Assembly (NCBI GenBank): GCA_964106915.2
Contig: OZ066916.1
DNA from: Podarcis gaigeae
Lineage: Eukaryota
Direction: 5' to 3' (one strand)
DNA length: 64,000 nucleotides
A program made the translations under genes and the position numbers. The notes under the pieces are model-generated. The model was not told where the DNA came from, did not search any database, and saw nothing but the letters and a program-made list of their open reading frames with translations. Positions 1 to 29,726 of the stretch are shown piece after piece; position 1 is the stretch's first letter; each line of letters starts with the position of its first letter.

Positions 1-1307
1 GTATCTTTACCACCTTTCAAATACCACCAATTCTCAGTATACTGTATGCATAGAAAATTTGCAGCCAAAAGTGCTAACATACAGTGGAAACAACCAGTCT
101 TGAAGTGGTTTGTAGAAACAGGGCCAGTGCCATGTTTGAGGAGGACCTCTCCATGTTGACAGACCTCTGCTCACAGACTTACCTGGCAGAAGCAACTGGG
201 TCAGTGATCTTCCATTTGAAAAGATTCCACAATGCCTCAGAGTGACACAACATTAGAGCCATTGGAGAAATATAAAAGGGTAGCTTGCTGGACCAGCCAG
301 CCAACCAACACCAGAGCGAACAGGGGAGGTATACCGTAAGTTTTGGTGGATCTTGCTGAGTCCATGATCATGCAAGATTCTCTATTTCAGACCATTTAAA
401 GAATTCAGATTTTAAAAGCTGTAAGTGGATTTCAGCATTCTATCAAAATTATACTATAAGGCATTACTTGTAATAATGATTTAAATTAATCTTGTACTCA
501 GTAGTGGCCCCTTCTCCCTTTACAATAAAGTATTGCTTTGTTGAGTACATTGTTGGTCCTTCCACATCACTGAACACAGCAGGTTACAAATTAAGAACTA
601 GTATACAGTATATTGCAGATCGAAAGGTTTTAGAGAGTATTATTGTCATAGTGGAAAATCAGCTACATAGCGATTCATCCACCTTACACATGATTCAGTC
701 AGCAATTATTATTTTTTGAATTTGATCTAGCAGGAATTTCATGTACATGAAATAAGACAATAAATAGCGAGCTGAAATGCCATAAATGACACTCTGGCCA
801 AGAACAGAGACACCAACCTCCTATTTTATCAAGTATTTGGATCATTTAAGGAGCATGTTTGTGTCAATACTCTAGGACACCTCTTCAGAAGTAACACACA
901 TTCCAGACTCTGATTTCATAACCACCCAAACGGTGTTATCAAAATATAGGGCATCCTTTCTATCCTGCAAAGGAGGAATCTATGTATAGGAAACACACAC
1001 TTCTATTCATCTCCATATTGCCACATCCTTGTTCCTACAGCAGAAATAATACTTTCCAGCACAGAAAGGGTTCCAATTAGACTAATGAGCAGCACAAGTT
1101 AACACAAGATGGAACACACAGGTTTCAAGTAGACACGCTTTCACTCTCTGTATTCACCAGCCCCTTTCAAAAGTGAACTGAATCTCCATCCAAGTGCAGC
1201 AGCAAGGTTTTTGAGGACTAAATTCAACCATGTCATCTTCACACTTAAGACCTGGCAGCATTATTTAGTTCTCTGTCTATTTGGGTCATATAAAGCTGCC
1301 TTGCACC

Positions 1308-1497
1308 AAGGTCCCATCAACACTATACATTTAAAGTGGTATCATACCAATTTAAAACAGTCATGGCTTGCCCCAAAGAATTTTGAGAAGTGTAGTTATT
1401 ATTGGTGCCAAGAGTTGTTAGAAGACCCTGCATTCCCCTCAAAGAGCTACAGTTCTCAGGGTGGTTTATCAGTCATTCTCTCCCTTCCCAGGAAAGT
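1308..1497. mobile_element. Partial palindromic MITE (Harbinger-like family, related to 43330-43623)
   Basis: Shares catttaaag..cagtcatggctt.cccaaagaat..tgtagtt..cccctca.agagctac with the copy at 43330. Confidence 0.55.
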
Positions 1498-1660
1498 CTA
1501 GCTATCCAGTTCTCAGGCATGGCGGGAACTTCATATCAACTTCTAAACTCTTTTTGATTTTGTGAAACCATGTTGAGATACACTTAAAACAAAGTATTCT
1601 ATCATATAACGTACTTAATAGCACATAAGGATGCATTGCCCAATGAATTCCATTATTGCG

Positions 1661-2469
1661 TGTTGAGGTCCCCAATCCACCCCCCAAAATAACTCACAAC
1701 GGACACGTAATTTTTGTTTAAGATTTTTGGCATGATTTTGGCCACAACTTTATTAAAATACAAACTGCGAGTGGTTGTTTAGGCATTGGTTAAGACTATC
1801 TGTCCCCCCGCCTGGGGACAGAACTGACTTCTGGGCACCACCGAAAGACAGTGCGGGGGAAAGCAAGTTGGGGAAGAATTGGAGCTGAGACACAGACCCT
1901 CAACTCTCACCCGCCTGCTCCCCGAAGGCTTGCCGGCCCTAGTCCCATTCCAGGGATTGGACGAAAAGATGGCAAGCCCCAGGATTCCTTTAACGGAATT
2001 CCCTTTCCGCAGCAATCATGGAGGGGCAGGCCCAGCCTATCCTGAACCCCTCCATGGAGGGGTAGGCCCAGCCTATCCTAACCCCTCCTCCACCAGATTT
2101 ATAACCAATGCCTAACCACAACCTTACAAGTTGTGACGATTTGCTACGCAGTAGGCAAAATCCACCCAGCCAGCCAATTTGCCAGGTGGAAAAATTCCTA
2201 CCAGGCCCCTGCTCAAAGGCAGACGACCCCATGACAGGCATAGCAAGGTCAACGCAACAAACCCCTTATTCTAGGGCGGGTGATCCGTTGCACGCAGCAA
2301 AAGAGAAAGTACAAGGCTGCGTGCAGAGTATTTAAACCTTTTACCCCTCCCACCAAAATTGCAACATAACTTTTGCCCCAGCAACTCGGCAATCCAATCA
2401 ATGCCCCCTGGCCATCTTGGAGAACTTACCCAGCAACAAAGGGGTGGCTCAGTAGACCCCACCACAACA
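1661..2469 (-). mobile_element. Solo LTR (~810 bp, LTR retrotransposon/ERV) with a long structured R region
   Basis: TGTTG..CAACA termini. On the minus strand: CCAAT/YY1-like motifs (~2395-2419), TATA-like TTTAAATA (2336-2329) and AATAAA (1754-1749). A possible CGTG TSD overlaps the left end. GC-rich island within AT-rich DNA. Confidence 0.65.
2151..2201 (-). other. ENE-like RNA element (U-rich internal loop)
   Basis: GUAGG-AAUUUUU-CCACCUGGC-loop-GCUGGGUGG-AUUUUG-CCUAC: two stems flanking opposed U tracts. Confidence 0.5.
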
Positions 2470-5400
2470 CGTGCTCTTCCTGAAGGAGAACACGCTTTCC
2501 AGAACATAATAAATAAGCTCCACTTTTCAATTAATAAGTTATCCTGTTTGACTCTCTTACTTTATTTGACCATGCCTTAAATTGCTGGGGAGACTGGCTT
2601 TTCCACCCCATCCCATATGTAACATATGTAACATCTATCAGTATATGGTGTTCTTAATAAATGAATTATCATTTTAGTATTTTTAATGTAACAGAGTAAT
2701 CCAACAGTAATTGGATCTGATAATAGTTCATATCCTGTGTTTTTTTTAAATAATCATTTATTACAGCAGTACTAAATGTTATTAGCCTGGAATACAACCA
2801 GAATGGGCAAAATATTTTACACACACACACACATATATGTGTGTGTATGCGCATCAGGGGTTACATTTGAAACACTCTTTGTGCAGAGCCATCTACCGCA
2901 AAGTTATGGTCCCCAATTAAAATTTCTATCCCTTGTTCACTTAGGAAGTACTTCACAGGTACACACAGTGTGGTCAGAAGCAGACCCCTTCATCCCATTG
3001 TGATTATTTTAGAAGTATTCTTTTTAAAAACCAAAACTATAACACTCCCATTAGCACCGGCTTTTAAAAACTTATCGGGTAATAAATTGAGTGTGGGTTG
3101 TAACACATAAGCATTTTGTAACAAATTCAGGTCTTAACAGAGGTACCCATGAACCACACAATTATTGTGACAAGGTTATTTTCCCCTGGGAGAGAGGACT
3201 GAGCTTAGTGGTTCATCAACGTATTGAAATTGCTGAGGCAGATCAAAGTGTGGGGAGGAGGAAAAGTGGGGGGGGGGGTGAAGTGCATGATCCAGCACTC
3301 TAATTCATTCATTGACTACCGCATTTGCACGGCACTAATTTTAGTAATTAGGGAGAGAAGTCCATTATTACACCATCCATTAAATAACGATCAGTAACCT
3401 TAATGGCTAATTGGAAAAAAAAAAAGATTTATTGTACAAAGCATACCAAATCAAGCCAGAGTCAGCTACTAAGAACATATGTTGGGTTCCTTAATGTATA
3501 TTTTCAAGAACTCTACTGCCATTTAGGGAGTGGGGGAAAGGACCCATGTAGAAGTGAAACAGAGCCTAATAACAATTACACTGACCGGAGCAAAAAGTAA
3601 TTCATAGTGAGCATAGAGAGGGAGAAAACAATTCTCTACATGCTTTCAAGCAGCTGCTCTACTGTTAATGGTAGAGCGTGGTGCTGATGCATGCAGGTAT
3701 ATTTAAGTCATTTCTAGATGTTGCCGTATTTCACATACAAAAGCTGCCTGCTCTTGAATAATGCATACACAGTACACTGAATTCAAGAATGTTAGATGCA
3801 AGGCAGAATTTTCGCTTCGTCAATTAGACAGATGACCTGCAACTACTGGAGTGAAGGCTGTTGTGCAACAGAAGTGAACTTTTTCAGTAAGTTTCCATTC
3901 CTCTGAGACAGAGACAATCATATCTCAAGACATCTGCTGTCCTCTGGCAGTTTAAATTTCAACACAAAGGTGAGCTCTTTTACCATGGCAGGTGCAGGTT
4001 CTCTCTCTGGCTGCTTTCCATGTCAGAAAGACAAATTTAACTATGTTGTCACACAGGGGCTCAAAGCAATGCCCTGAGACTGGTCTAGTTTGGAAACATA
4101 GACCTTGCGCTGACTATAAGGTACATTCATTTCCTCTTCCATGTTCTATCCTTTATTAACAACCACCACATATGGCGTGAGTAGCAGTCATGTTAATAGC
4201 TTTGGGTTAAAGATCCAGATTTCAGCTTCATTCATTTGTGGGGAAATGAGAATGGGTTCATTTACACATGTTCCAGAGCTGAAGAAGCTTAATCATGAGC
4301 AGGCACAGAAATGAAGAAAAACAAAATTAGAGAACTGTTAAACAAGCAAAGTATTTTTAGGAATGTCATACCGTTGAAGAAACCTTACATTATCTGTTTT
4401 AGTTGATTAAGCAATTTTACAGTCAATTAAGTTTCATAGGTAAAAGCAATTATGAAGCCAAAAGTATGATTTTTAGATGCTTGCATTCACCATAAATGAG
4501 GCATTCCCACCTAGACCTAACAGTATCTTGAGGTCACCACAGTGGCTACTCCTGGCCTAGTGAGTGTGTGAATAGGTCTTTTCATGAAGACGAAAATGCA
4601 GTTTTCCCCCCTGTACTAACTAAAAACAGCAATGTTGTGTGGCAGCATGCCAAAAACAAAGAACAAAACTCAGTCACTCAAAAACAAACCAGCAACTATG
4701 TCACCATCAATAGTAAGTGCGGAAAGGCCCTAGGAGATTCTGCTGACACTGCTTAAAAAACATATCCACAACTCAAGTCCTACCATTCAAATGACTGGGA
4801 GCCAGTTACATATATCTCCAGTGGCCTCTTAATGTGCTCTGTGCACACTCCACAGGTGCTGGTTCTATGCAATGCTGCATACTCAACATCAACCATTTCA
4901 TCCAAGGTTGACAAAACCAGACAAACTAGGCATCAAGATTGCATGATGAGGGAGGGAATATTCTAGACATGATGGGATTCCTTTTCAGCCTTGCATGAGC
5001 ATATGAAGCCACACTTGGGGTATCTAGTTTTCCATACCTGGTTTTTAAACTGCCATTGCAATCAGATTTAGTAGACATTTTAATCTTTGAAACATAACCT
5101 GCAAAAAAGGGCACAGTTGCTCGGACGCTTGGCATCAGTTAAAGATGGAATCGGCTTGCCGTGTGGTTGGGTTGCCAAAAAGAGGGCATAAGGCAGCTGC
5201 CTGGCACCTACTGCTTAGGGGCAATTATGTAGATGTAACTGACCTATGTAAAGAGAAACAATACTATTGCATGTAAGCAGCATGCTTTCACAAGAAAGAA
5301 ACACAATCCACCTCGGAAAAGCTTGCTTTCCCCCCCTCAAGACTTAAAGAACTAGAATGAAGCAGGTGTGCTCTGGAGAGTGCTTTCTTTCAGTGGATAT

Positions 5401-6683
5401 ACACCTATGATTTGTAGAGTTTAATTGGGCTCCAGCTGGGGTTAATTGTTCCCCCCCCTCCACCGTTCTTGCTGTTTTTATTTCTTTTCTACACAACAGA
5501 TTAACGGGAAACAGAAACCCCCTGCTCCAAGGCTACAAGACGGAAGCTGTGAACAGGAGAAAATATCTGTCTTTCATAAGAGCACAAGCCAAGGGTATGC
5601 AACATAGTGCGCTCAAAATGTTCTGGGGATTCCCAGCTCCCAGCACCCTCAGTCCCAGTCACCATGGCCGGTTCACAGAGAAATATAAGTCATATCATGT
5701 AAGTGTGCAGGTGCACAGAGCAAAAACTGCAAGTGCTTCGCTCTTCCCCAGAGGGTCTTCGTTACTAAGCCATGGCTTGGTTCAGTGTTGTGTGAGAACC
5801 CAGGCCAGCAAGAATAAAGCTTAGTGTTGCACTGAGTCCTCTGGAGCATTGTGGCAAGTTGGGGCCCACCTTGCTGAGATCCCTTCAAACTGGGAGCAAG
5901 TCCTCTATGGAATGGCAGCTTTGACCTATCTTCAACTGCTCAGTTTATGGGGAACATTTTTCAAATAAAAACTCCTTAGAAAAATTACAGGGAAATGTCA
6001 TCTATAGCTGGTTTTGTTTCTTTCTTTCTTTTTTCATTTTAAACAAAACAAAACAAAACATGAACACCAGACCAAACAAATCTCATAAGAAAATGTTCAA
6101 CTAAATCCACCCACACAACAGTAGGAGCTGTTATCTCAGAAAAACGATTTAGAGGTCATAATTAATTTGATCACTGCTGCAAAAAATAGGGATTGCAAGA
6201 AACTGGGGAAAGAGCACAGCTCCTACTCTTTTCAAGTGGAAAAAAGTGGTCTATCACAACTACTCAAATTAAATTACTATAGGAGAATACAAGCAAATCT
6301 ACACAATACGTATGAAGAAGTGGGTGCTCTACTTGATGTTTTGGAATAAAAAGTACGGTGGCACTATAAAGCCATATGTTGTTTTTTATTTATTATGCTA
6401 TCATCTGAAACATTTGTTACCAATATATTACAAACATTAAAAATACATAAAAAATAAAGGAGCTAGAAGTAAAAGCTTCACAGTCAGATGAATACAGTGT
6501 ATTATGTTCTTCACTTCTTGTTTATTGGAAATTTGCCACCTGCATAAAGGTAGTGCATAAATCTAAATAGCTTCTACAAACTAACACAAATGCTTGGCTA
6601 AACATCAGGTGTAGGAAGCCACGTGGATATTTCTTTATTTCAAGTATCCCACCTCCCACCCTCCTTCCACTAGATCAGCATTA

Positions 6684-8998: not shown

Positions 8999-10724
8999 CC
9001 TTATACTCTCAATAGGGAACAGAAGAAAGCATTCAAAGCAGCCAGCCAGCCTCTGATTACCAACATTCAGCAGACATATAACTTAACTTTAAATTTAGCT
9101 ATGTAATTTAGTGTCAGCCATGAAGGGATACTTTGATTTGTATTTTTAATTAAAACTGTTTTACACTGTGCTCCTTGATGGAATTGTAAAAACACTGGGC
9201 TATATCGACTTGTGTCCTTCCACTCACAGAAGGTTCTTCTATCCAGCAGAGGCTTCCATAAAGTGTAGCAGGGAGATGCACCCTGCACTCCCATATCTGT
9301 TCCAGAAGATTGGGAGATCCCTCTAAACATACGAGGTGTCATATAAAGACTAAACGGAAAGGGGAAATGTGGAAAAAATCATTTCCTCCTTGTTCTATTC
9401 ACTGAAACTGGTTCAAAGAACCTTCTATGAATGGAATGGCACAATTCAAACTTAAGGAGTAACCTGCCACCTCACAGAAAACAGAAAATGTTTATTGTAT
9501 GCTTTATTGTTGTAACTCACCCAGGAATCTTTGGACAGAGGGGCAGGATCTACATTTTTAATGAACATCTAAAATAAATGTGAATCACATCCTAAAAGCA
9601 ACAATTGGCATATTAAACACCATTCAATTGTGTGTTATTTCATTCTGCTTCTGTCCTAGAACTAACTTCTATTCATTTGCACATTACAATGCCTTATTTT
9701 AATAGAATAAAAGTGACACGGAAATACACATCCCTTCAATTCTTCCTTTCAGGCACTTTTAATCTCACAATGCACTCTCTTAAACACACACACACAGTCT
9801 CTCCTCTGTGGTGAACTAACTCCTGGATTTTTCAAATGCGTGTGTCACAGCCTTTACATTTGTTAGTATAAACCAGACACTCAATACTTTATCCCTGTCT
9901 TTTGAAGGAGTGTTGAGAGACAGAAAACAGAACAATGTATGTTTAAGAGGGCTTGGCTATCAGCTTTGAACAGCCTGGATTTTTTAAAACCATATGTGAA
10001 AGCCTACTTTGGTTTTTGAACCATGGTTAAAAATACTCCCACATAATTAGTTCCAAGCAATATTTAGCCAATGTATAAATAGTCAATAAAAAGAAGTGTA
10101 GTGAGTTTATTCTTTTTAACAGATTGCAACTGTACCTGAGCTCTTCAGAGCCCTGCAGTCTCCGCTAGAGTTCTGTCTGTATTCATTTCCAGAATACAAC
10201 AAAGAAAACCTGATTCCACTGAGCAGAAGAGATAGTGGTTACTTATTATTTCTGAGAGAGGGCAGCCTTTGCATAAATGTTTGGTTTCAAGAGACACAGA
10301 GTGAAAACCTGTAATTACCAGTGAAAACAGGAGGCCAAAATTAAGCCTTAGAGGATCCGTGGCAATTGGCAAATGGCTACCCACAGCGGTGGGTCTTCGC
10401 ATCTCAAATTTCAGTAGTGCCCTGTGCAACACCAAAATTTGGCACCCCACCTGGTTTCTCACCTTCTCTTGGACAGTTGCAGTTCCTGCTGTGGTGCTCC
10501 AGAAGCTCTGCACCCCGTCCAAGTGAACCAGTTGCACTCCCCTAGACCTGCCTTTGCTACCCACACGAGCACAAATTTTAAGCAGCAATTATTTGGCATG
10601 GTTTTCACTCTTTAGATAGAGCATCTTTTAATTATATTATAAGGGCGATCAGGATTTCTCAGAAGCCGTCATAGTGGTAAGTAGTGTGAAACTGCCCTTA
10701 ATCACTGAATAAACTACTGAAATA

Positions 10725-10949
10725 CAGTGGTACCTTGGGTTACATACGCTTCAGGTTACAGACTCCGCTAACCCAGAAATAGTACCTCAGGTTAAGGTCT
10801 TTGCTTAATGATGAGAACAGAAATCGTGCTCTGCGGCCTGGCAGCAGCGGGAGGCCCCATTAGCTAAAGTGGTGCTTCAGGTTAAGCACAGTTTCGGGTT
10901 AAGAACAGACCTCCGGAACGAATTAAGTACTTAACCTGAGGTACCACTG
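10725..10949. mobile_element. Tc1/mariner (pogo/Tigger-like) MITE, family A
   Basis: TA|CAGTGGTACCT..AGGTACCACTG|TA; near-identical to 24618-24843 and to the inverted copy at 29288-29513. Confidence 0.9.
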
Positions 10950-11114
10950 TATTGAAAAAATGAAACTCTCTGCACAGAGTCCAGTTTCTGCTTGAAAACT
11001 GAGAAATCAATTAGGCTGGGAAAAACATCCTACACAATGCCAAGGGACAGGAGGAACCATGTTGGTGGATGGCTAAAGCTGCAGGGGAAATCAGGGGTAG
11101 TAAGGTAACTGGGT

Positions 11115-23035: not shown

Positions 23036-24617
23036 GCAAGTTACTTATAACCACACCAATCATGATTATTTGTCAATCAGTGAGTCCCATTGCTTTCACA
23101 GGAACTTGGGGCTGAACATGCAATTTGTGAGCAGACTAGCCACGAAGAGTCACTTGTGGCCCACCATTTTTCTTCCAGTGACGTGCATCTCCGTTTATCA
23201 GTGGGGAAAAAGATGAGCAAATTTTTTTAAAGACAGGTGTATTACATGTATCCATAGCAGAACAGAATTTCCAGACAGTCAAGCCAAACCACTAAAATGA
23301 CTTGCTTAAAATATGTGCCAAGATTTACCAGTAAGATTGCACAGGAATGAAGGGAATGTAGAACACCTATTCATTATTACGTAACCAACTTGGCAAAAAG
23401 GCTTAACTGCAACAGTTTCTCCACTGTAGTCTAATGCAAATAGAAAAATTGCTTGAGGGGTGAAAACTCTTAAGATTATTAACAGCGCATAAACCAGACA
23501 GGTTCAAATTAGTGGGTTTTGCAACAACAAAGGTCAAATGTGATTTTTTTAAAGGATTATCTCACAAAAATCTCCTCCTAAAGTAGGAACAAGAGTTTCT
23601 GTGAGAGCACTTTGTATAAGGCTGGTTCAAAAACCACATGTTTTGGTGTTTGATGATGGCAATTATCAAGAAGTGCTTAGGAGGCATGTCAGGCTACCAT
23701 TTTCTCTAATAATGAACTCAGTTGGTTGACTGCCTATCATTTTGGAAGTGAAACAAACTCAAGGGACACCCCAGTTTGTCAGAAATACATACATTTGTAA
23801 ATGAAAAGAAAGGTTCACTGCTCCTCCACCCAAATACACACAGACACACCTGCCAATGATGGGATCTTGCGAGTCTATCACTGAAATATGTCTGAGACAC
23901 TCAATATTTGTGTGCCAGTTGGCCGGTGGCGTAGGGACATATCCGGAATACTGCAATTGGCAGCAGTGTACAGGCAGAAACTGGCAAAATTTCAGGGAAA
24001 ATCCAGACATATATGGCAGACCATGGCAGCAGTGTCATTTTTGTACACTTTCTATAACAACAGCTCAAAAATGGCAAAAAAAGGAAATTGCATAAAGAAG
24101 CTTAACAGCTTTTCTGTCTGGATTTTCATGGTTTGAAATATGGCAATCCTACGGTGGGGGACAGAAAGGGGAAATTGGCGGGGAGGGTAGAAGAGAAGGT
24201 CAAGTAGGAGTAGCTTATCTAGTTAGGGTGAGAGGCAGCAATACCTCTCCCAACAGGGGTGTCACTGCCACTTACCAAAAAGGGATGGAGCGAATTGACA
24301 GTAAGGGCAGAGCACATTGGGACAGCCCATCCTACACTCGTGCCAGTATGCCTAAGCAGCCCTAGCCTCACCAAAGCCTCACCCCAACAGGTAGACAGCA
24401 GTGACACCCCTGACAGGAAACTATTGCTGCCATCACATCCCAATGGATGAACTGTTCCTGGAATTGACATACATAGTCCCTGACATATTGTAGGAAGTTT
24501 CCTAGAAGGGAGGGGATGCCATCCCAATCTGTAGAACAGCAACCTATCCCCTCACCGCTATGGGAGCTAACAAACAAAAGTTACTCAGGTGTGAGTTGGC
24601 AGCCCTCAAGCACTATA

Positions 24618-24843
24618 CAGTGGTACCTCGAGTTACATATACTTCAGGTTACATACTCTGCTAACCTAGAAATAGTGCTTCAGGTTAAGAACTTTGCTTC
24701 AGGGTGAGAACAGAAATCGTGCTCCGGCAGTGCGGCGGCAGCAGGAGGCCCCATTAGCTAAAGTGGTGCTTCAGGTTAAGAACAGTTTCAGGTTAAGTAC
24801 AGACCTCAGGAACGAATTAAGTACTTAACCCGAGGTACCACTG
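24618..24843. mobile_element. Tc1/mariner MITE, family A
   Basis: TA|CAGTGGTACCTCG..CGAGGTACCACTG|TA. Confidence 0.9.
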
Positions 24844-24845
24844 TA

Positions 24846-28351: not shown

Positions 28352-29287
28352 TTGATTCAAGTGCTAGCATTTAAGCGTCCCAGATAGCAACAATACAGCC
28401 AAATTCCAGTTTCAAAAGTTATCTCAACAAGTAAAGAATTTGCTTATGCTAGATTGCTTTTTATAACTCTGCTTAGCATCTGTGTGTATAATACCTCAAA
28501 GCAAACAGATATGCTTTTCCTACACAAGTTTATCTTACCCATCTCAGAAACTAAGCATATGGCCAGTACTCATCAGTGCCATTTAGATGTAGGACACAGA
28601 TTACAAAGATTACCCTCTACCACCACAGACACACCCAACCACAATAATGCAAGAACACAGACCAAGCACCTGAAGGCGTTTTCACTACCTCATTTGAAGA
28701 TCAAGACTTCAGATAGGCAAAGTTGCTGTTACAGCTCCAATTAGTAGTTCTGCATGAACATAAAAGCACTGCTAAATGTATGAAGAAATTACGCAATCAT
28801 AAAAGCCAGTTCTAACCACTATGAAAACAATACAGAACAGTAAATTGTAAATCAAGGTGGGTAATCTATTTCTGACCAAGGGCAAAAGGCAATATCAGGA
28901 AGAGCAATAGATGTGACTCTTACTTTTGTATAGTAGGCTACATTCCAGCCACCTAAAAATCACAGGGCTTCTACAAAGATGCACACCCACCCTTCGCTAT
29001 AGCCACCCATGCAATTACCTTTATCCCAATTCAGTGATATATCTCAGACAAGTAAAAAATACTAAAAGAGAGTGCCAAACAGGTCTAGTGAGAGCTGTGG
29101 CCTGAGGGAAAGGGGTGTTGAGGGAGAGAGCCCTGAGAGACAGACAGAAACGCCCCTGAACTTGAGGTTCCTCACCTGTTGTAAATGTGTAACTATTCAG
29201 CTTGGAGAGTGGTAAATGGTCTATCCAGCATCCAAAATTTTACCTGGATTTGGGAAGACGCAGCTTAATCTATTTATAAGCAAACTA

Positions 29288-29513
29288 CAGTGGTACCTCG
29301 GGTTAAGAACTTAATTCGTTCCGGAGGTCCGTTCTTAACCTGAAACTGTTCTTAACCTGAAGCACCACTTTAGCTAATGGGGCCTGCCGCTGCTGCCGTG
29401 CCACCGCCACACGATTTCTGTTCTCATCCTGAAGCAAAGTTCTTAACCTGAGGTACTATTTCTGGGTTAGCGGAGTCTGCAACCTGAAGCATATGTAAGC
29501 CAAGGTACCACTG
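29288..29513. mobile_element. Tc1/mariner MITE, family A (inverted relative to 10725)
   Basis: TA|CAGTGGTACCTCG..AGGTACCACTG|TA. Confidence 0.9.
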
Positions 29514-29726
29514 TATGTATGAGGAAACCGCCTCTCCCCTAGTGCAACTCTCATGTACAGGCCTCGCACCAGTGGTCAAAGGTGTGGGAAATAGTAGTCC
29601 AGAAACATCTGGAAGGGGACAGTTTCCACATCCTTGGATTGTGACAAGATAGGGCCTACACAGACTCAAAATAAGGCTCTAAAGGTGCCTAGGACACTCC
29701 TGCACCCACAGACCGTACATGAATCA

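Follow-up and report, generated by a model that had tools for sequence, protein, structure and literature searches.

Does a lizard mobile element carry an RNA clamp for its own poly(A) tail? The question arises from a repeat on the minus strand of a 64-kb stretch of Podarcis gaigeae DNA (the window), in which an earlier note had recognized a hairpin whose internal loop is U-rich and had proposed that this lizard LTR family may carry a functional ENE. ENEs bind poly(A) tails and slow deadenylation, as shown for PAN (PMC7583470) and Evade (PMC12501189). They are located close to 3′ ends and make retrotransposons more mobile (PMC12501189; PMC7583470), and the G-C pairs flanking them matter (PMC12501189). 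ENEs occur in transposable elements of plants, fungi, and slime mold, as well as in stickleback retroviruses (PMC7583470). The earlier note knew of no thorough account of ENEs in vertebrate LTRs; given the stickleback examples, an ENE in a vertebrate retroelement is not new as such.

The hairpin occupies 2150..2202 on the minus strand, where it was recovered by a single fold, by family comparison, and by RNAalifold. Its lower stem pairs 2197-2202 with 2150-2155, and its upper stem pairs 2181-2189 with 2162-2170; between them, a 5′ loop strand of two As and five Us (2190-2196) faces the 3′ loop strand at 2156-2161. Folded alone, 2149-2203 reaches −24.3 kcal/mol (z −4.41, attained by 0 of 200 shuffles), while its opposite strand gives −15.9 kcal/mol (z −2.9). 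The two-stem, U-rich minus-strand hairpin reported previously is therefore real. The loop, which had been described as U5 opposite U4, requires a correction: U5/U4 is private to the window copy, and the family, whose loop reads AA+U5 against U5+G, has U5/U5 in 23 of 23 other oriented copies and at 27 of 30 loci. The difference lies at A2161, which is U in all 23 other oriented copies. Because this private U-to-A change lets one U pair, the window copy is left with a U4/U4 loop. An Rfam scan of window positions 1-6000, taken to E 10, returned 11 weak matches, none of them over 2151-2201 (Rfam may lack a general ENE model).

By its layout and ends and by the ORFs of its relatives, the element that carries the hairpin is a solo A-C-B unit of an Ngaro retrotransposon (DIRS order). 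The unit measures 843 bp (1656..2498, minus strand), and its ends are common among copies. It belongs to a young, multi-copy family, here termed S1, with thousands of solo A-C-B units (4115 first-look candidates; 97-100% identity in the 40 that were scored). Its 5′ end (2489..2498) combines an AAA core with a GCGTGTT arm, half of a putative recombinase site, and its 3′ end (1656..1664) combines the inverted counterpart of that arm, AACACGC, with an AA core; the termini thus carry an A core flanked by short inverted arms, not TG...CA. Among 30 copies, target duplications of 4, 5, and 6 bp were found 1, 0, and 0 times, the control means being 1.6, 0.6, and 0.02. Together with relatives of the layout A1-Gag/RT/YR/SGNH-B1-A2-C-B2, the A-core ends and the lack of target duplication identify an Ngaro solo unit, so that the assignment to a solo LTR has to be withdrawn. 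An LTR of the ERV, Gypsy, or Copia type is ruled out by the same ends and missing duplications, and also by the parents: their repeats are split instead of forming two whole direct LTRs, and they encode a tyrosine recombinase (YR) instead of a DDE integrase. A Helentron or HINE, suggested by a terminal hairpin and TT ends, was likewise rejected, since the parents encode RT and YR and not a Rep-helicase.

Three segments make up the unit. Repeat A (2281..2498, ~215 bp), delimited by A1/A2 self-matches and present as A1 and A2 in full elements, has its boundary directly before a C-rich tract. Spacer C (2118..2280, 160-185 bp) is a unique, structured segment between A2 and B2 that is unrepeated elsewhere in full elements. 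Repeat B (1656..2117, ~460 bp) is present in full elements as B1 and B2, which are 100% identical over 463 bp in locus L081. The hairpin lies, as had been stated, between a TATA-like box upstream, TTTAAATA near the end of A (2329..2336), and an AAUAAA downstream (1749-1754). TATA-like words stand at the equivalent place of A2 in the nine relatives compared, and transcription would start ~30 nt downstream of the box. Some further features of the unit deserve mention. At the extreme start of repeat A is another hairpin, with a UUCA loop (2468-2495, minus strand), whose G-U pairs are compatible with the minus strand only, and repeat B contains a 36-bp tandem duplication (2017-2085) restricted to family S1. 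At the A2/C border (2274-2280), 22 of 23 elements have a C-rich tract made up of three or four CCC runs, and several metagenome relatives are C-rich at that place as well; in minus-strand cDNA, the complementary sequence could fold into a G-quadruplex. Two of 30 copies, the window copy and L002, lack 8 bp of this tract.

Full-length relatives were found in the genome with a head-to-tail junction pattern containing the AAA core, which gave 30 exact matches, compared with 0 for a control pattern. All 20 junction loci fetched read B-AAA-A-(spacer)-B, and the B-A junction sequence agrees with the element ends. When 10 of these loci were extended, nine showed the order A1-ORFs-B1-A2-C-B2, with A1/A2 self-matches of 210-222 bp at 98-100%; the tenth, L081, has an assembly gap at the expected position of A1. 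The 1656-2498 unit corresponds to the 3′ end of the ORF-bearing L081 at 97.5% identity, and L081 is a member of the window's own family. In all three elements scanned, the ORFs comprise a CCCH-finger Gag-like protein, RT, tyrosine recombinase, and a GDSL/SGNH hydrolase. RVT_1 (E 7e-14 to 3e-10) is the sole domain above the Pfam cut-off in these three, and the phage integrase (E 1e-4 to 2e-3), GDSL/SGNH (E 4e-5 to 7e-4), and CCCH finger (~1e-3) matches fall below the curated cut-offs. The R, K, H, R, and Y columns are invariant in the recombinase alignment, and the closest YR relatives come from lacertid lizards first, then from geckos, anoles, and amphibians.

For comparison, 23 elements with two B repeats, several of them close kin, were assembled from the 10 junction-picked loci and 13 of 40 protein-picked loci (L221-L260). 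Recombinase identity within this set goes down to ~51%, two frameshifted copies (28-39%) having been set aside. The other 27 protein-picked loci, excluded because they have no spacer C, stop cleanly after one B without A2-C-B2; an upstream A match lies within the fetched stretch in 16 of them. These one-B elements stand in a reciprocal relation to the A-C-B solos. Repeat recombination could give rise to both forms; alternatively, a circle bearing two B-A junctions could be resolved by the recombinase into a pair of circles inserting separately. For a further family, S5, the one junction pattern searched gave 0 matches, and S5 is therefore known from solos only. A large share of the ORF-bearing Ngaro matches falls on one 29.5-Mb contig (G000:C32), on which nearly identical copies lie between 24.6 and 27.3 Mb; L221 and L222 have 3′ flanks in common, which suggests segmental amplification, perhaps on a sex chromosome. 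Another subfamily (L083 and L088) has degenerate ORFs, internal tandem repeats, and many near-identical junction loci. With A1/A2 100% and B1/B2 99.6-100% identical and the hairpin intact, its sequences point to what is likely a recently active non-autonomous Ngaro.

The hairpin is a real, conserved, sense-strand RNA structure. It is present once, in spacer C, in all 23 elements retaining both B repeats. A motif descriptor, written after the motif was seen and hence tuned to it, matched once in the 64-kb window, and none of 30 dinucleotide-shuffled versions gave a match. On both strands of 1.9 Mb from the same genome, a set of overlapping loci chosen because they contain this element, the descriptor gave 64 matches in Ngaro spacer C and 0 elsewhere. 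In an alignment of 28 copies (the window copy, 22 full elements, two S5 solos, and three solos of family S3), 97.6% of the 464 cells for 17 named pairs are paired, compared with 31-51% for slid controls, and RNAalifold returns the same stems with the loop open. Three Us per loop strand, the AGG/CCU core, and two G-C pairs adjoining the loop are invariant in 28 of 28 rows, and the upper stem varies in sequence and length. Two-sided changes affect three of the six lower-stem pairs, and the covariation score was matched by 0 of 500 shuffles. Since those shuffles ignore relatedness and the two-sided changes derive from two or three lineages, this covariation is support, not proof. Nothing about covariation can be learned from the C-B helix described below, from the CC/GG pairs, or from the AGG/CCU core, all of which vary little or not at all; covariation in the upper stem was judged from single folds and not counted because MAFFT misplaces the upper stems of families S4 and S5. 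When sense-strand copies were folded alone, the loop was part of the MFE structure in seven of seven, one of which has a different centroid, and G-U variants are compatible with the sense strand only. Among copies, then, the U tracts and flanking stems are conserved or covary, the reverse of what the earlier note had listed as evidence against its motif.

The loop also forms a natural series of U-tract lengths, written here as 5′ strand/3′ strand. In addition to U5/U5 in S1, the tracts are 4+G/5 in S2, 5/6+C in S4 (15 of 25 loci), mostly 4/3+C in S3 (9 of 29 loci; an older, more decayed family with 6410 first-look candidates), and 3/3+C in S5 (21 of 25 loci; 1676 first-look candidates). Two further elements, L257 and L259, have three Us on the 5′ strand. 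Across families, the range is 3 to 6-7 per strand, and the lengths of the two strands correlate (Spearman 0.70 over 22 hand-tabulated, related rows). ENEs are generally expected to have four to five or more U-U oppositions. Families S1, S2, and S4 reach this number, and S5, S3, L257, and L259 have three or fewer. Two other features of the ENE layout are present: an internal loop rich in U, with Us on either strand and a short helix on each side, and G-C pairs beside the loop (the A-minor receptor).

Beyond the hairpin, the minus strand is predicted to form helix P1 and two long-range helices, which would fold B out and bring the hairpin next to AAUAAA, one of the two at B2 only. Helix P1, whose 5′ arm at 2239..2246 pairs with 2141-2148, closes the spacer domain; 95.9% of its cells are paired, its changes are one-sided only, and RNAalifold predicts it too. 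The C-B helix starts 12 nt behind the hairpin, where a 10-bp stretch of the spacer (2128..2137) pairs with 1741-1750 and overlaps the last two As of AAUAAA; its partner arm belongs to a segment (1741..1754) made up of the hexamer and the nearly invariant stretch behind it. The B-start helix pairs 2102..2118 with 1776..1792, an inverted repeat (I1, 17 nt, 94%) whose second arm lies 25 nt before the hexamer, and loops out ~310 nt. Paired cells reach 98.1% in the C-B helix, with 0 two-sided changes, and two-sided changes affect three of 13 pairs in the B-start helix; for the long-range helices over 27 rows, 97.9% of cells are paired and six of 32 pairs have two-sided changes. The hexamer is present in 27 of 27 aligned rows. 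In the B2 context, the predicted probability is at least 0.8 for the C-B helix in 19 of 23 elements, at least 0.97 for the B-start helix in 21 of 23, and at least 0.5 for the lower stem of the hairpin in 17 of 23; in this long context, the lower stem is below 0.5 in six of 23, with 0.02 in L081. The fold of window positions 1715-2300 (z −6.5, 0 of 100 shuffles) has all three helices in its MFE structure, and its centroid is without the C-B helix. The AAUAAA, ~400 nt downstream of the hairpin in sequence, is near it in the predicted fold.

The first of the two poly(A) signals stands in other surroundings. No spacer C precedes B1; the end of ORF4 is instead predicted to pair with the stretch before the hexamer, and in 23 of 23 elements this pairing is stronger than that of the matching stretch before B2 or that of the ORF4 ends of the other clade. 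In one clade, all 10 elements have the AAU of the B1 hexamer covered by it, compared with one of 13 in the window's clade, in which the ORF4 duplex is only modestly above shuffles. At B2, the predicted C-B helix covers the last As of the hexamer and could weaken, not help, that signal.

On balance, we consider it somewhat more probable than not that the spacer-C hairpin is an ENE-type clamp on the poly(A) tail, slowing the decay of full-length RNA that ends in B2. In this model, transcription would start near the end of A1, and the RNA would read through the B1 AAUAAA, copy A2, and end at the identical B2 AAUAAA. The C-B and B-start helices would fold away ~330-380 nt, so that ~25-40 nt of backbone would separate the U loop from the start of the tail. 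A U-A-U triple helix at the first As of the tail may then slow deadenylation. RNAs ending in B1 have no spacer C and would therefore have no clamp; in this way, the element would enrich the template for its replication relative to the shorter RNA. The suggestion that this family may carry a functional ENE thus survives in part: it draws on the architecture, the conservation across families, the compensatory changes in the stems, and a fold that sets the loop beside the signal, but the host is not an LTR and some families have tracts of three Us. The window copy itself, a remnant of recombination whose U4/U4 loop is weakened, probably does nothing for its host.

A more elaborate version can be put forward tentatively, namely a two-state RNA switch in which the signal is hidden by the ORF4 end at B1 and the docked spacer ENE clamps the tail at B2, the triple helix selecting the template. 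Among readings without a poly(A) clamp, it is possible, if rather unlikely, that the hairpin is an arm of a replication or packaging structure whose U-rich loop binds a protein and not poly(A), acting with Gag or RT, in priming, or in strand transfer. The whole of spacer C is conserved, its pairing with B included, and conservation therefore does not single out poly(A) binding. The loop base is an invariant A-purine opposite G, and the loop keeps a size of ~6x5 in S3 and S5 even where C replaces Us; the C-rich tract that 22 of 23 elements have where A2 meets C suggests that C holds further replication signals. However, U-tract lengths range from 3 to 6-7 and change jointly on the two strands, as would be expected more of a homopolymer partner than of a fixed protein site, and the predicted fold sets the loop at the poly(A) end.

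U-rich upstream elements are known to act in 3′ processing. Spacer C might accordingly serve poly(A)-site choice only, as an upstream U-rich enhancer near the B2 hexamer without any clamping. The predicted helices bring the U-rich loop to AAUAAA only at B2, and the predicted B1 and B2 folds differ, as this reading would have it; for an enhancer, however, G-C closing pairs around a two-sided U loop would not be needed, and the hexamer is partly covered by a helix, which makes the explanation improbable. That the fold is a functionless by-product of descent is very improbable, for although the positive families are all related and come from one genome, with invariant core pairs and with the hairpin in 0 of 12 non-lizard relatives, the interior of B and the upper stem diverge freely while the stems, U tracts, and distant arms are kept with compensatory changes.

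The clamp reading can be set beside characterized ENEs. Like the single-domain ENE of KSHV PAN, the lizard hairpin has a U-rich internal loop between short helices, at a position predicted to be 3′-proximal in a polyadenylated RNA (PMC7583470; PMC13541005), and the five Us per strand of S1, with G-C pairs adjacent to the loop, resemble the five U-A-U triples of PAN. It differs in its loop bases, which are two purines on the 5′ side and G or CG on the 3′ side, in tracts of 3-7 Us, and in standing ~400 nt from the signal, to which it would be brought close by predicted helices; the short loops of S3 and S5 fall below the five triples of PAN and are the strongest point against a classical ENE. 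The ENEs and double ENEs of Evade/Copia93 and stickleback retroviruses are likewise U-rich and borne by retroelements in a 3′-proximal position (PMC12501189; PMC7583470); as a clamp of this kind, the lizard hairpin would protect the template of transposition. Unlike these, the lizard hairpin belongs to a tyrosine-recombinase element whose direct repeats are split, and the spacer that holds it is followed by just one of the two identical poly(A) signals; unlike double ENEs, it has a single main loop, above which a 2x2 pyrimidine loop is added in some families. With respect to the MALAT1/MEN-beta type, which combines an encoded A-rich tract with a tRNA-like processing element, runs of four or five As follow the hexamer in S1 and S2 and are absent in S4 and S5.

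Similar comparisons can be drawn with known Ngaro elements. Xenopus DIRS-53_XT, an Ngaro with an SGNH ORF, has the layout A1-ORFs-B1-A2-B2 with overlapping Gag-like, RT, YR, and SGNH frames (PMC9210276). The lizard elements differ in their structured A2-B2 spacer of 160-185 bp and their longer B repeats, and the portion of the DIRS-53_XT account considered here mentions no RNA element (PMC9210276). Isolated split-repeat A-B units resembling the lizard solos are represented by the solo AB repeats of Cafeteria Ngaro (PMC8547959) and by SIRE of the Trypanosoma cruzi VIPER, which is its A2-unique-B2 part (PMC6681497). In contrast to both, the lizard unit has thousands of copies and includes the hairpin together with a TATA-like box and AAUAAA, and it could therefore give a short ENE-bearing RNA, predicted at ~570 nt. 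No paper treating Ngaro or DIRS elements together with ENEs was found in the literature searched, the coverage of which did not extend to the 2012 and 2016 ENE surveys or to the 2021 pocket paper and supplements; PMC13541005 has no occurrence of DIRS.

Metagenome contigs yielded 80 YR loci, 12 of them with two downstream repeats, and a loose descriptor found the hairpin between these repeats in 0 of 12, most contigs being too short. With 0 of 12 non-lizard relatives positive, the hairpin is, on present evidence, a feature of this lizard lineage. One metagenome contig has a clean U5/U5 ENE-like hairpin (L189:590-633) ~3 kb upstream of its recombinase match, not at the spacer C position. The index searched listed no RNA data set containing the element. 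Four RNA runs from a related organism contributed 101, 68, 65, and 88 reads, mostly 90-95% alike and in both directions, which are too few and too divergent for ends or strand to be read from them. They form no pile of starts or ends and show no poly(A) among the 24 of 54 loose ends shown, and are thus uninformative on start, end, and strand.

The synthesis, ending, and protection of RNA in split-repeat DIRS-order elements have been little studied, and a conserved putative 3′ clamp by just one of the two identical poly(A) signals offers a concrete handle on their life cycle. If the clamp is real, ENEs would be extended to a new class of mobile elements in amniotes, and solo copies in or near host genes could stabilize host RNAs that end in them. 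Should the switch reading hold, the thousands of solo A-C-B units would be ready cassettes for short, PAN-like stabilized vertebrate RNAs. The natural series of U3-U6 loops in one genome is also suited to asking what the minimal length of an ENE is. Elsewhere in the window, a short repeat starting TACAGTGGTACC recurs at 10722-10951, 24615-24845, and 29286-29516, which we take to be probably a MITE family of the Tc1/mariner type.
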